Shown here piece after piece: positions 27,913-32,003 of a DNA stretch of 37,522 nt; the stretch's first letter is position 1, and each line of letters starts with the position of its first letter. The notes beneath the pieces were generated by a model. The model did not search any database and was not told the DNA's origin. It saw only the letters and a program-made list of their open reading frames with translations. The position numbers and the translations under genes are program-made. The stretch is taken from the IMG/VR virus record IMGVR_UViG_3300029068_000003; one strand, written 5' to 3'. The stretch comes from a virus (Duplodnaviria > Heunggongvirae > Uroviricota > Caudoviricetes).

Positions 27913-28517
27913 GCGTTAGTTTCTCCACAGTCACGACACGCCACGGCGCCCGGAGCTGCACACTCGCGGGCGTCATTACTTTCTGAAATGCAAAAGATTT
28001 TGTAGACCAGTGCTGCATGCTCCTGCAGCTTCGAAATTGAGAGATACAGCTCGTCGTTAATTGCTGTCTTCTCATGCGGTTCCACCACACCGTCTTCGAT
28101 TGCCGAACGAATCTGTCTGGAATAACTGCCAATCTGTTCAATGACTTCCAGCAGGCGCTGGTTAATATCGGCGTTGTCCACATCCTCGACGTCAGGAAGA
28201 GACACAAAGACGCCATTTGCAGACTGCGCCACAGCGTCAGCAATGAAGTGAGTTCCACCAGCACGTTGCAAAATCATTGCCCATCCCAGCGGGAAAATCT
28301 GATCGCCATCGGCACGAAGGCGGTTAAATAATGCGTTTTCTGTTACATCCAGCCAGTCAGCTGCTTCAGCGTAACCACCCGGCAACGCTGCGATAGTTTT
28401 TCTGACAGCTTTCACGTACCACTCAGGCTGTTTTTCTACTTTCCAGTGATGCTTACCCACGGTTAGCCTCATCGTTCTGTGGTTTCTGTTAATCGATTTA
28501 TCCATTAGATTTTTCAT
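27909..28517 (-). CDS. CII-like regulatory protein (CP76 family-like), start uncertain
   Basis: Segment ...[36 protein letters not shown]... resembles the CP76 CII-like family as recalled; ORF-track start is GTG at 28574 (overlaps cro by 77 nt); in-frame ATGs at 28517 and 28505. Confidence 0.4.
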
Positions 28518-28795: not shown

Positions 28796-29422
28796 ATGGA
28801 AACGGTTGGTCAGCGTATAAAAGCTCTGAGAAGAGTTACCGGAACGTCCCAGAAAGAATTGGGTAAATTTTGTGGAGTAAGCGACGTTGCTGTGGGGTAC
28901 TGGGAGAAAGACATCAATACCCCTGGTGGGGAGGCACTTTCGAAATTAGCGAAGTTCTTCAATACGTCAATAGATTACATTCTTTATGGTGCTGAGTTTG
29001 AAGGCAAACTCGTCACAAACATGCGCAGAGTTCCTGTAATATCGTGGGTTCAGGCTGGGCAGTTTACTGAGTGCAGGGCAGCAGAAGTGTTTAGTGAAGT
29101 GGACAAGTGGGTAGATACATCATTAAAGATTGGTGATAACTCATTTGCATTAGAGGTTAAAGGTGACTCCATGACTAACCCTAATGGCCTCCCAACAATA
29201 CCAGAAGGCGCAACAGTGATTGTAGATCCAGATGCAGAACCTCGTCATGGAAAAATAGTCATCGCTCGACTTGATGGAACAAACGAAGCTACAGTAAAAA
29301 AATTAGTCATCGATGGCCCTCAAAAGTTTTTAGTGCCATTAAATCCTCGGTATCCCAACATCCCTATCAATGGTAATTGCCTTATCATTGGTGTAGTCAA
29401 AGGAGTTCAATACGAACTCTAA
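28796..29422 (+). CDS. CI-type repressor (XRE HTH + S24 LexA-like autopeptidase)
   Basis: 208 aa; N-terminal HTH (QKELGKFCGVSDVAVGYWEKD); C-terminal Ser/Lys dyad context (VKGDSM ... ATVKKLV). Confidence 0.8.
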   Translation: METVGQRIKALRRVTGTSQKELGKFCGVSDVAVGYWEKDINTPGGEALSKLAKFFNTSIDYILYGAEFEGKLVTNMRRVPVISWVQAGQFTECRAAEVFSEVDKWVDTSLKIGDNSFALEVKGDSMTNPNGLPTIPEGATVIVDPDAEPRHGKIVIARLDGTNEATVKKLVIDGPQKFLVPLNPRYPNIPINGNCLIIGVVKGVQYEL

Positions 29423-29669
29423 GACCTCTCTTCTCTAACTAAGGCACCGAACTAAGAAAAGTTTGGTGTTTTCTCTTGCCATAACAACTAAGTTAAGTTA
29501 GATTTTATATCAAAGATAACGAACAGGCAGGACGCCCACGAAGTAGCCGCCTGGGGCATATGAAGTCCAGGATGATTCGTTAGCAACAAAAAAGCGCCCT
29601 ACAGGACGCTTAGCTCTTTAACAATCTGGTCCCCATCAACAAGTAACTGATAACTTGAGGAGGTGTGAA
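29423..29669 (+). promoter_or_regulatory. Candidate OL/pL region
   Basis: Repeated ACTAAG half-sites, including the same AACTAAGTT palindrome (29486-29494) found in OR; GAGGAGG Shine-Dalgarno for the downstream ORF. Confidence 0.4.
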
Positions 29670-29876
29670 ATGCACAAAACAGAACCAAAAATCGTCGCGC
29701 CCGGATACACAAATGAGGAAATTTACGAGTGGATGGCAAAGAAGCTGGCAGCTATAAACCAGCTTCGTGAAGTGCTGTCTTATCGACAGGAAACAATAGA
29801 CTCCTTAAAAAAACTGGATCAGGAAATCACGGTTTTATCACAGGATGTTACTTTAGATATTGTGCAGACAAATTAG
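29670..29876 (+). CDS. Small early-left protein, function unknown
   Basis: ORF-track start is TTG at 29655; ATG at 29670 lies 6 nt after GAGGAGG; 68 aa. Confidence 0.45.
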   Translation: MHKTEPKIVAPGYTNEEIYEWMAKKLAAINQLREVLSYRQETIDSLKKLDQEITVLSQDVTLDIVQTN

Positions 29877-30282
29877 GATCCCATTCATTTTCGTCAAAAT
29901 CATCAAAGTGATGAATTTGTGATCTCCAGTCTCGATAATCTAAAAATTTCTGGGCGGTTACGCTTATTTTATCAAGTGTGAGTTCATCCTGAATTGAAAG
30001 AAGAAGTTCATCAAATTTCATCTCATTAATCTGTTTTGGCATCCAGTGATGCTTCATCAGAATAAGGTGAACCAGAGCCTTTTTCCCATTCAACTGATTA
30101 TAGGGAGTGCCGAATTTCTTCCGGTGCTCATGTAAGACAAGGTCCAGAAGAGTAAGTAATGTTGCCCTTGATTCAACTTTGCTTATTTCGACTGATGACA
30201 CTACCCCACTGATTTCAATGCCCCGATACTTTCCAACATTTTCACAGTGGGATTTGTACAGCGTATAGATATTACCGGACAT
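29848..30282 (-). CDS. Hypothetical protein encoded antisense to the early-left operon (moron candidate)
   Basis: 144 aa AT-rich ORF, ATG start, convergent with and overlapping the 3' end of 29670..29876; direct repeats upstream; no recognisable domain. Confidence 0.45.
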   Translation of the reverse strand: MSGNIYTLYKSHCENVGKYRGIEISGVVSSVEISKVESRATLLTLLDLVLHEHRKKFGTPYNQLNGKKALVHLILMKHHWMPKQINEMKFDELLLSIQDELTLDKISVTAQKFLDYRDWRSQIHHFDDFDENEWDPNLSAQYLK

Positions 30283-30297
30283 TTCTTTTCCTTTTGC

Positions 30298-30349
30298 GTT
30301 GTTGGGGATAACCAGATTAACCGAATCCTTGTTGTTGGGGAATAACCAG
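30298..30349. repeat. Direct repeat pair upstream of the antisense gene (candidate regulator binding sites)
   Basis: gttgttggggataaccag (30298-30315) and gttgttggggaataaccag (30331-30349). Confidence 0.5.
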
Positions 30350-30549
30350 GTCCACCTCGCCTGATGTGGCTAAAAGCAGGCACATAACAGCTAAGTATTT
30401 TCAACCAGAGAGAATTCTTAGCGTTGTGGTGAATGCGGCTCAGCGCACGCGGGTTAAGGTTGAGGCTGACAGTCGACCTTCTGTGGATACCCACCCGCCT
30501 GGTGTGCAACCTTCGCCAGGCACCGGGAGGCACCCGGCACCACAACTTT

Positions 30550-30613
30550 ATGCTGTGTGTAGTCTTGGCGGTACCAGTTTGTACTCTTGCTTCCGGCTGG
30601 TACCGTCCTTTTT
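30550..30613 (+). ncRNA. Candidate small RNA with intrinsic terminator (possible DicF-like sRNA)
   Basis: 9-bp stem cggtaccag/ctggtaccg (30569-30577 / 30597-30605) followed by tcc + TTTTT (30609-30613); 5' arm uggcgguaccaguuuguacuc resembles the DicF seed region as recalled from memory only. Confidence 0.3.
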
Positions 30614-30702
30614 ACAAAACAGAGAAGAGCATCACCGGACGACGGGCTCATAACCCAATCCATCCGGGCGGCTGCCACCGCAGGTGTTCTTCTCTGTTTT
30701 GT
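30614..30702. repeat. Long inverted repeat (15-bp arms, 59-nt spacer) upstream of the YfdP-like gene
   Basis: acaaaacagagaaga (30614-30628) and tcttctctgttttgt (30688-30702) are exact reverse complements. Confidence 0.55.
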
Positions 30703-30750
30703 GGAGAAACTAATCGGCCTTGCAGGGTCGATATGATGAGGAGCAGCAAA

Positions 30751-31113
30751 ATGGCTAGCGAACGCAGTACTGATGTGCAGGCATTTATCGGGGAGCTGGA
30801 CGGCGGCGTATTTGAAACCAAAATCGGCGCAGTTCTCAGTGAAGTCGCTTCCGGTGTGATGAACACGAAAACCAAAGGGAAGGTCTCACTCAATCTGGAA
30901 ATCGAACCGTTTGATGAGAACCGTGTGAAAATCAAACACAAACTCTCATATGTTCGCCCAACTAACCGCGGGAAAATTTCCGAAGAAGACACCACCGAAA
31001 CGCCGATGTATGTCAATCGCGGTGGTCGCCTGACTATTCTGCAGGAAGACCAGGGACAATTACTGACTCTTGCCGGTGAACCTGACGGAAAACTCCGCGC
31101 AGCAGGTCGTTAA
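30751..31113 (+). CDS. YfdP-like prophage protein
   Basis: 120 aa from ATG 30751 (GAGGAG 7 nt upstream); the longer track ORF from 30433 runs through the structured region and is unlikely. Confidence 0.45.
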   Translation: MASERSTDVQAFIGELDGGVFETKIGAVLSEVASGVMNTKTKGKVSLNLEIEPFDENRVKIKHKLSYVRPTNRGKISEEDTTETPMYVNRGGRLTILQEDQGQLLTLAGEPDGKLRAAGR

Positions 31114-31178
31114 TATCGTTCTTAATAAACTAATTATTTACCTCATCACTGAATATCTTTATATAGTGAGGACTTATT

Positions 31179-32003
31179 ATGTCTCAGAACTTAGACGCAA
31201 CCGCAATTAATCAAATCCATGCCCTTATTTCTGCTCAGGGTGTTAATGAAATTATCAGTAAGATTGGTGCCGACGCAGTGGCATTACCTGAGAATTTCCG
31301 CATTCATGATCTGGAAAAATTTAATTTAAATCGCTTCCGTTTCCGTGGTGCGCTTTCCACTGCCAGCATCGATGACTTTACCTGTTATTCTAAAGATCTT
31401 GCAGATGAAGGCACCCGCTGCTTTATCGATGCTGATAATATGCGTGCCGTCAGTGTTCTTAACCTGGGTACTATTGATGAACCAGGTCACGCCGATAACA
31501 CCGCCACTCTCAAACTGAAAAAGACAGCACCGTTCTCTGCTCTGTTGTCTGTTAATGGCGAGCGTAATTCCCAGAAGTCACTGGCAGAATGGATTGAAGA
31601 CTGGGCCGACTACCTTGTGGGCTTTGATGCTAATGGTGACGCTATTCAGGCAACAAAAGCGGCTGCGGCTGTCCGTAAAATCACGATTGAAGCAAACCAG
31701 ACCGCTGATTTTGAAGATAATGACTTCAGCGGCAAACGCTCCCTGATGGAGTCTGTCGAAGCGAAGACCAAAGACATTATGCCAGTGGCATTTGAATTTA
31801 AATGCGTTCCGTTTGAAGGCCTGAAAGAACGTCCATTTAAATTACGCCTCAGCATTATCACTGGCGATCGTCCTGTACTGGTTCTGCGCATTATTCAGCT
31901 GGAAGCAGTGCAGGAAGAAATGGCTAACGAATTTCGTGATCTGCTTGTTGAGAAATTCAAGGACAGCAAAGTAGAAACCTTTATTGGTACTTTCACCGCC
32001 TGA
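31179..32003 (+). CDS. DUF2303 / YfdQ-like prophage protein
   Basis: 274 aa, ATG start with TGAGGA Shine-Dalgarno; size and neighbours match the CPS-53 YfdP-YfdQ-YfdR block as recalled. Confidence 0.55.

Follow-up and report, generated by a model that had tools for sequence, protein, structure and literature searches.

A three-module RNA island upstream of yfdP in a lambdoid prophage is related to DicF and STnc100

We analyzed a DNA stretch of 37,522 nucleotides (hereafter "the window"; IMG/VR record IMGVR_UViG_3300029068_000003, Caudoviricetes), which represents a lambdoid prophage of the SfV/SfIV/e14 type. Upstream of the gene yfdP, positions 30390-30702 of its plus strand form a non-coding RNA island of three modules, each of which is conserved across Enterobacterales prophages: a five-hairpin domain of the STnc100 type, a single-stranded 16-mer followed by a DicF-like terminator, and a three-way junction with an arm that resembles initiator tRNA. 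We conclude that the island is a real, widespread, and mis-annotated variant of the DicF and STnc100 kinds of RNA, and not a new kind. The tRNA-fMet-mimicking arm is the one component that has no explanation within the DicF and STnc100 kinds. By analogy with DicF, the island probably yields an Hfq-type base-pairing small RNA (sRNA) from the early-left transcript, released by termination or by RNase E/RNase III processing. We hold the anatomy and the family relationships of the island with more confidence than its action in trans via the 16-mer.

Structure and coding status of the RNA island

The elements of the island, the conserved box on its 5' side, and the start of yfdP on its 3' side are as follows.

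30352-30381, plus strand: conserved box CCACCTCGCCTGATGTGGCTAAAAGCAGGC, located 5' of the RNA modules and kept in e14 and phiES15
30390-30422, plus strand: 5' hairpin with 13-nt arms (dG -11.8, z -5.5), lying within the Rfam STnc100 match
30423-30546, plus strand: STnc100-type five-hairpin domain (module 1) with the closing helix GUUGUGGUG / CACCACAAC and the motifs GGUGAAU and CACCGGGAGGCACCCGGCACC
30551-30566, plus strand: single-stranded 16-mer UGCUGUGUGUAGUCUU (module 2), a putative base-pairing seed, unpaired in the centroid fold
30567-30613, plus strand: DicF-like Rho-independent terminator (module 2) with a 13-bp stem, a 15-nt loop, and a U5 tail
30614-30702, plus strand: three-way junction (module 3) with a closing helix of 19-21 bp (putative RNase III site) and two arms
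30635-30667, plus strand: arm A of the junction, invariant
30643-30656, plus strand: CGGGCUCAUAACCC, 14 nt identical to the anticodon stem-loop of E. coli initiator tRNA-fMet
30668-30681, plus strand: arm B of the junction, variable in length and sequence
30739-30753, plus strand: Shine-Dalgarno sequence AGGAG and true ATG of yfdP (coding sequence (CDS) 30751-31113; PGAP annotation of a 100% identical genome)

The structures of the island are beyond chance, and compensatory changes were found in other phages. The segment 30385-30720 had a predicted folding energy of -145.9 kcal/mol, compared with -110.3 kcal/mol for dinucleotide shuffles (z -6.5; 0 of 100 shuffles as good). Its minus strand folded more weakly (-128.9 kcal/mol, z -3.7), leaving the plus strand better by 17 kcal/mol, and the RNA was assigned to the plus strand because the G·U pairs exist on this strand only. 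The GC content was 0.53-0.56 inside the island and 0.37-0.44 in both flanks. A first-pass annotation of the window had described a structured, GC-rich non-coding region with a terminator hairpin at this place; every feature was found where it had been put, with folds better than those of shuffled sequences. Of 5426 complete E. coli genomes, 2782 matched some part of the region, and 1626 carried at least 80% of it.

According to the analyzed data, it is very improbable that the region codes for a protein, be it YmfH-like or an N-terminally extended YfdP. Frames are open at 30366-30653 and 30433-31113, and some records carry ymfH or hypothetical proteins here. However, PGAP places the start of yfdP at 30751, 7 nt after AGGAG, and calls the region upstream a frameshifted hypothetical pseudogene. 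The open reading frame (ORF) 30366-30653 was open in 11 of 21 distinct close homologues and interrupted in 10; substitutions among these homologues were distributed over the codon positions as 8:5:8, with no excess at the third position, and 1-nt indels were present. The 226-amino-acid protein of the ORF track that begins at 30433 is the yfdP frame extended too far upstream. Consistent with the PGAP start and the lack of conservation of the upstream frames, the first-pass annotation had already taken this protein to be probably not real. Covariation pointing to a coding region was to count against its reading; the covariation found was that of RNA pairs, and the frame is not conserved. RNA covariation accounts for the conservation of the region, and unrelated cassettes swap the interior of the island between the same flanks.

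In E. coli K-12, the CDS ymfH of prophage e14 (L002:3076-3387) covers exactly the island, equivalent to approximately 30427-30739 of the window. In the e14 copy, the CAU loop is mutated and the loop of the terminal hairpin has lost one nucleotide. Overexpressed ymfH is a reported trigger of the RcaT toxin of retron-Sen2 (bioRxiv 10.1101/2020.06.22.160242). As the ymfH CDS coincides with the RNA island, this retron-toxin phenotype may be due to the RNA.

The conserved box CCACCTCGCCTGATGTGGCTAAAAGCAGGC occurs once in the whole window. In loci that have no five-hairpin domain (L013, L087, L256, and L264) it stands 10-90 nt 5' of the seed and terminator. No sigma-70 consensus was found near it, and it may mark the 5' boundary of the island, signal processing, or act as an atypical promoter or as the site of a protein. 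Close by, a direct repeat GTTGTTGGGGA(A)TAACCAG is present at 30298-30322 and 30331-30356, with starts 33-34 bp apart. This repeat is located between a divergent gene encoding 144 amino acids and the RNA island and may be a regulator-binding site; a sequence resembling it was also observed 5' of the conserved box in phiES15, L087, and L256.

The three modules and their relatives

At gathering thresholds, no Rfam family was found in the entire window. An alignment to Rfam models had been suggested earlier as a check on the resemblance to DicF, and this check had a mixed outcome: a permissive scan, below gathering thresholds, gave STnc100, a family that had not been considered before, as the best match and DicF as a weak one.

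The five-hairpin domain of module 1 is enclosed by a perfect 9-bp helix (30423-30431 / 30538-30546), and the Rfam STnc100 model (RF02076) matched 30393-30616 along its full length (positions 1-206 of 206) at 44.2 bits (E 2.8e-8). Viral contigs and phage records yielded 95 distinct domains of this type (190 instances), of which 25 representatives were aligned (alignment A2). RNAalifold predicted three helices for this alignment: one that closes the domain, one in a hairpin P2, and one in the terminal hairpin CCGGG-AGGCA-CCCGG. Pairing was maintained in 97.3% of the alignment cells compared with 88.0% in shuffles, eight pairs had changed on both sides, and none of 500 shuffles equaled this result. 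The inner closing helix and the last hairpin had been used to collect the sequences, but the outer helix pairs and P2 had not. The outer pairs of the closing helix were variable, for example with GC in 15 and AU in nine sequences at one pair.

The domain shares with STnc100 the match to the whole model, the invariant motifs GGUGAAU and CACCGGGAGGCACCCGGCACC, the maintenance of the closing helix and the P2 hairpin by compensatory changes, and a terminator that follows the domain. Compared with the canonical form, three P2 pairs are swapped from CG to GC, and the interior hairpins are also different. Whereas the usual STnc100 terminator is of the CCCCUCUCCGGAGGGG type, the terminator module in the window is DicF-like. 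In addition, the window copy resides in the early-left operon between the repressor and yfdP-xis-int, whereas the described STnc100 copies lie in late regions, near Q, downstream of stx2, and near esterase/lysis genes (bioRxiv 10.64898/2026.05.13.724894; PMC12370729). The subtype found in the window is common to e14, ST64B, phiES15, P1, and the domain upstream of dicB in the Qin prophage. All its members scored 33-44 bits and are thus sub-threshold in Rfam, so that annotation pipelines miss them.

The canonical STnc100 copy that follows stx2B overlaps EcOnc27, an sRNA bound by Hfq (PMC12711010). STnc100 and PasD have been presented as related late-region prophage sRNAs in a 2026 preprint that mentions neither DicF nor yfdP (bioRxiv 10.64898/2026.05.13.724894). 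Two further candidates were rejected because they belong to different loci: PasB lies inside a structural-gene operon, and HnrS lies among late genes and is confined to enterohemorrhagic and enteropathogenic E. coli. One IMG/VR contig (2861053794_000003; L137) carried three to four STnc100-type domains in tandem within ~1 kb, the ends of which were conserved while the interiors differed.

Module 2 begins after the closing helix of the domain with UUUA-UGCUGUGUGUAGUCUU, and the terminator follows. The strong 9-bp stem and U-tract noted in the first pass at 30569-30613 are present, and the stem extends further: perfect pairing covers 9 bp (30569-30577 / 30597-30605), and the full stem has 13 bp (30567-30579 / 30595-30607). 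The tail is CUUUUU at 30608-30613, with the U5 at 30609-30613 (dG -20.7, z -3.1). A GC-rich stem directly before a U-tract is the arrangement of intrinsic terminators; a consensus scan missed this one because its loop exceeds 8 nt. Homologues carried terminator variants beginning with GGCGGUACCAG, GGCGGCGUC, GGCGGCAUC, or GCCCAUCAC, some had long insertions, and the stem changes were compensatory. The 16-mer UGCUGUGUGUAGUCUU, on the other hand, was nearly fixed upstream of these different terminator sequences in at least 10 genera, which include Escherichia, Shigella, Salmonella, Citrobacter, Cronobacter, Klebsiella, Enterobacter, Buttiauxella, Mixta, Pseudocitrobacter, and Phytobacter. Variable, compensatory terminator stems next to a fixed 16-mer are the usual signature of a seed beside a terminator. 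Other loci have other "seeds", such as CAACAGCCACUGCUUU in mEp460 and Stx2c-type phages.

A resemblance of the 5' arm of the terminator hairpin to DicF, which the first-pass annotation had pointed out, proved genuine. The terminator 5' arm and loop UUGGCGGUACCAGUUUGUACUC match UUGGCGGUAUCAGUUUUACUC of DicF, and direct alignment of DicF with the window module revealed 48 identical positions out of 58, including UUGGCGGUAYCAGUUU and UACUC. We also built a covariance model (R2) from 14 modules located upstream of yfdP, leaving DicF out of the training set. This model found the genuine DicF (L127:1497-1558) at 29.8 bits with an E-value, roughly calibrated, of ~7e-4 in 156 kb. It scored the window module at 65.6 bits and an untrained ST64B copy at 31.3 bits, and nothing else had E <0.1. 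The window and the dicBF region of Qin also agree in setting and order. Each is part of a prophage early operon that follows the immunity repressor, and each has a structured 5' domain, a spacer, a short sRNA with its terminator, a helix of ~20 bp, and the next gene. In both, the terminator 5' arm starts with UUGGCGG and the helix comes immediately after the U-tract. In Qin (L127), the structured domain before DicF has several hairpins and is closed by GUUGUGG.../...CUGCAAC, and a 21-bp helix starts 4-5 nt after the DicF U-tract, encloses an STnc100-like domain (33.7 bits), and ends before dicB.

The further idea that this RNA could be DicF itself did not hold. The Rfam DicF model (RF00039) covered only 30554-30608, with 19.9 bits (E 0.085) compared with a gathering threshold of 48 bits and 76.7 bits for genuine DicF. 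The 5' single-stranded seed of DicF, UUUCUGGUGACGUU, which is its xylR-pairing region, is not conserved in the window (UUUAUGCUGUGUGUAGUCUU at this place), where the different conserved 16-mer UGCUGUGUGUAGUCUU is found instead. The terminator loop and 3' arm are also unlike those of DicF. Moreover, the STnc100-type cassette is located downstream of DicF in Qin but upstream in the window, the cassette upstream of DicF is of another type common to the "dicF-like region" of phage P1, and the downstream gene is dicB in Qin and yfdP in the window. Based on these sequence comparisons, module 2 is a diverged relative of DicF, within a DicF superfamily, and not a DicF orthologue.

These data also bear on whether the RNA could act as a true orthologue of DicF, stopping cell division through base pairing at the ribosome-binding site of ftsZ, which we regard as improbable. 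The window does share UUGGCGGUAYCAGUUU(G)UACUC with the ftsZ-pairing part of DicF, and its AGUUU/CUCUU would be able to pair with AAACU/GAGAG at the ftsZ ribosome-binding site in a predicted duplex of -21.2 kcal/mol, compared with -22.5 kcal/mol for DicF. However, this duplex was no better than those obtained with shuffled sequences or random targets (P 0.55 and 0.36, respectively), so that the ftsZ targeting suggested by the first-pass annotation was left at chance level in a test of low power, which did not single out validated DicF either (P 0.19 and 0.10). The Rfam score far below threshold and the differences from DicF in terminator loop, 3' arm, and 5' seed likewise speak against an orthologue. 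Furthermore, the loops of the homologues vary widely whereas the 16-mer is conserved, which indicates selection on the 16-mer and not on the ftsZ-facing residues.

Module 3 directly follows the terminator. The first pass had seen a long inverted repeat at 30614-30702, which is present; its size had been understated, as the arms measure 25 nt (30614-30638 / 30678-30702, 84% complementary) and not 15 bp, and it forms a separate three-way junction. In the predicted fold, a helix of 21 bp encloses two inner hairpins (dG -47.5, z -7.1; 0 of 200 shuffles as good). For 21 diverse junction copies from at least 14 genera (alignment A3), the RNAalifold consensus consisted of a 19-bp closing helix, arm A, and arm B. 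Pairing was retained in 97.7% of the cells compared with 92.6% in shuffles, nine pairs had changed on both sides, one pair was split into 11 CG and 10 GC, and none of 500 shuffles matched this result. No Rfam family matched 30614-30702 in the permissive scan. With the RNase III processing helices known from the 72-nt 3' end of DicF, the junction shares a near-perfect double-stranded RNA of ~20 bp directly after an sRNA terminator. It differs in that the helix in the window caps a conserved three-way junction, and cleavage at this site is putative. The invariant arm within the junction suggests a further function beyond that of an RNase III site.

Within arm A, CGGGCUCAUAACCC consists of three G:C pairs and the loop CUCAUAA; the tRNA-fMet sequence used for this comparison was checked against the annotated tRNA-Met genes (four copies per genome). 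The 24-nt core GACGGGCUCAUAAYCCAAUCCAUC was present without mismatch in >120 viral contigs, and the degenerate 22-nt form GACGGGCUCAUWAYCCAAUCCA in the genomes of 24 species. We rejected 30614-30702 as a tRNA, as ARAGORN and the Rfam tRNA model were negative in the window and the anticodon arm alone matches. Pairing of the CUCAUAA loop with the start region of yfdP was also rejected, since the downstream sequence is not conserved in homologues. An unannotated tRNA-like RNA with the same arm was observed in Klebsiella-type phages (L003:1503-1590, L004:1503-1590, and 15 other loci). Located between Q and the lysis genes, this RNA is the last unit of arrays with one to four tRNA genes and begins 6 nt beyond the final tRNA. 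Its short acceptor-like fold, GGCCU...AGGCC, carries RCCA at its end, and its third arm is variable. ARAGORN did not call these relatives tRNAs.

One possible explanation, which we consider unlikely, is that the junction and its tRNA-like relatives are not merely an RNase III site, but a functional mimic of the initiator-tRNA anticodon arm that binds or decoys a factor reading this arm. The identity of the 14-mer with the tRNA-fMet anticodon stem-loop, the invariance of the 24-nt arm while the closing helix and arm B vary, and the occurrence of the same arm in an acceptor-like fold with an RCCA end after the tRNA arrays of Klebsiella-type phages are in line with such a role. On the other side, the arm could be the relic of a tRNA gene retained for structure alone, and the CAU is mutated in e14, although e14 is a defective prophage. 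With similarly low confidence, the junction and its Klebsiella-type relatives could be seen as a new family of phage tRNA-like RNAs with an anticodon-arm mimic as core, and DicF, STnc100, PasD, and the junction as one shuffled toolkit of tRNA-derived cassettes in lambdoid and P1-like operons. If this were true, the factor that the mimic decoys or binds could be a VapC-type nuclease cleaving tRNA-fMet, methionyl-tRNA synthetase, or the P site of the 30S subunit with IF3.

Combinations of these modules recur in other phages. At least four unrelated 5' domains were found between the same flanks, so that the region behaves as a set of exchangeable cassettes. The leader of the ban operon of phage P1 ("dicF-like region", AF234172) contains the same cassettes in a polycistronic operon with tRNA genes, and tciA is immediately preceded by a second STnc100-like domain, whose closing helix GUUGCGGUG / CACCGCAAC shows a compensatory change. 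P1 differs from the window in cassette order and number, has no copy of the 30614-30702 junction, and has real tRNA genes interspersed. Its "dicF-like region" is of the cassette type that is found upstream of DicF in Qin and in mEp460-type phages. In Cronobacter phage phiES15 (L130:1984-2196), an STnc100-type domain and the same 16-mer are combined with a different terminator in the absence of a three-way junction, and this cassette is located directly upstream of the kil gene for a septation inhibitor. As related cassettes precede kil in phiES15, dicB in Qin, and tciA in P1, several of them adjoin division-inhibition genes. A complete island copy of the enterobacterial type was also observed in a sequence titled Chryseobacterium sp. 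18061 (L261), which is probably due to contamination or mis-binning. In the literature on ymfH, yfdP, "DicF-like", and ST64B together with sRNA, we found no description of the RNA upstream of yfdP, its seed, or the junction.

Operon setting and proposed function

Upstream of the island, the window contains the following features in this order.

28796-29422, plus strand: LexA-family repressor gene, first in the local gene order
29476-29504, plus strand: probable early-left promoter (TTGCCA, 17 nt, TAGATT), overlapped by operator-like CTAAG/CTTAG repeats
29515-29584, plus strand: conserved leader RNA element of ~70 nt, directly 3' of the early-left promoter (covariance model R1, 97.4 bits)
Between the leader and the 144-amino-acid gene, plus strand: ORF of 73 amino acids
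29848-30282, opposite (minus) strand: gene of 144 amino acids, ECs1072 family

The RNA island occupies the 468-bp gap between the 144-amino-acid gene and yfdP, and the genes on its 3' side are yfdP (30751-31113), yfdQ, yfdR, xis, and int. The position in the early-left operon that the first-pass annotation had proposed was thus borne out, downstream of the immunity repressor. The CTAAG/CTTAG repeats of the promoter also occur between the repressor and cro genes, and homologues have strong promoters of differing sequence in the equivalent position. In ST64B and phiNP, no protein gene intervenes between the early-left promoter and the RNA modules, and in e14 of K-12 the equivalent island, annotated as the CDS ymfH, is directly 5' of xisE-intE.

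The leader is composed of AACGAACAGGCAGGACGCCCACGAAGUAGCCGCC, a hairpin, and GAUGAUUCG. We found 45 distinct copies of it, which follow promoters of several immunity types and show compensatory changes in the second hairpin. Like the put RNA of phage HK022, it lies directly after the early-left promoter and 5' of terminators, which is the position of putL (PMC9378689), and it has a predicted two-hairpin fold with compensatory changes; unlike a put homologue, it has only short motifs in common with put. Homology was rejected, as BLAST was negative for putL/putR, and model R1 matched neither HK022 28240-28312 nor any PR-proximal site. The likeness is best described as a positional analogy only. 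In the phiNP leader (L131:1700-1830) and in L117, the T-arm-like minihelices GGUCCGUUCAAUUCGGACACC and CCGGUUCGAUUCCAGACACCA were observed; their presence in a long non-coding leader suggests that such leaders are assembled from tRNA-derived pieces. ST64B has, on the minus strand of its locus (L129:409-597), matches to C4 antisense RNA (79.7 bits) and isrK (64.3 bits), ~2.5 kb from its island copy and across the immunity region.

The route by which an Hfq-type sRNA would arise from the early-left transcript can be outlined from the relationship to DicF. DicF binds Hfq, and RNase E generates its 5' end; a 3' end left by termination gives an RNA of 53 nt, and one left by RNase III an RNA of 72 nt (PMC5069750). 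In the window, termination at 30613 would produce an sRNA of ~220 nt. A cut by RNase E in the AU-rich spacer at ~30547-30550 would then leave an Hfq-binding 3' fragment of ~65 nt, whose conserved 16-mer would serve as the seed for pairing with mRNAs. Upon induction, early-left transcription would read through, and RNase III would cut the 30614-30702 helix, as it does downstream of DicF, and so separate the sRNA from the yfdP-yfdQ-yfdR-xis-int mRNA. As the seed is unlike that of DicF, the set of targets is expected to differ, and division inhibition via ftsZ is not predicted.

A clearly less probable alternative is that the island is a purely cis-acting leader and gives rise to no trans-acting RNA. 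The terminator would attenuate early-left transcription, and the flanking structures would govern how stable the yfdP-yfdQ-yfdR-xis-int mRNA is or how it is processed or translated. This would agree with the intra-operon location of the element between the early-left promoter with its leader (29476-29584) and yfdP, with the lack of a protein gene between promoter and modules in ST64B and phiNP, with the related cassettes 5' of dicB, kil, and tciA, and with the e14 island, which, directly upstream of xisE-intE, would gate the excision genes. However, attenuation needs no strictly conserved unpaired 16-mer beside variable terminators, and trans-action or Hfq binding is known for the closest relatives, which are DicF and the STnc100 copy EcOnc27 (PMC5069750, PMC12711010). 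A role as a cis-acting leader and one as a trans-acting sRNA are not mutually exclusive.

Several observations weigh against a trans-acting sRNA of the DicF and STnc100 kinds. The STnc100 match remains 2.8 bits short of its gathering threshold (44.2 compared with 47 bits), the DicF match is far below its own, and the R2 E-values come from a rough calibration. A sigma-70 scan of 29400-31300 showed no promoter between 30283 and 30392, where inspection by eye yielded poor -10/-35 candidates only; as no recognisable sigma-70 promoter is present there, the origin of the transcript was inferred. For the e14 copy (ymfH operon), Reg-Seq detected an active start site in one condition only (PMC12132413). 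Within the window, the complement of the seed had a single site with three mismatches, which is the level expected by chance. The 16-mer could be a recognition site for a protein or an RNase instead of a pairing seed, and cleavage by RNase E and RNase III is argued here by the analogy with Qin alone. Taken together with the fixed 16-mer and the relationship to DicF and STnc100, we still favor the base-pairing sRNA.

Implications for prophage RNAs

DicF has previously been viewed as an isolated regulator specific to Qin, and STnc100 and PasD as sRNAs of late regions. Our results place DicF and STnc100 as cassettes of one modular system, which recurs in the early operons of many Enterobacterales prophages and in which each variant seed may have its own targets. 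The island is located upstream of excision genes, and annotations routinely present it as a hypothetical protein, ymfH, or a pseudogene. The RNA may underlie phenotypes credited to "YmfH", such as the triggering of the retron toxin. The conserved 16-mer represents a directly testable seed, and the tRNA-fMet-like arm provides a lead on the role of the second element.

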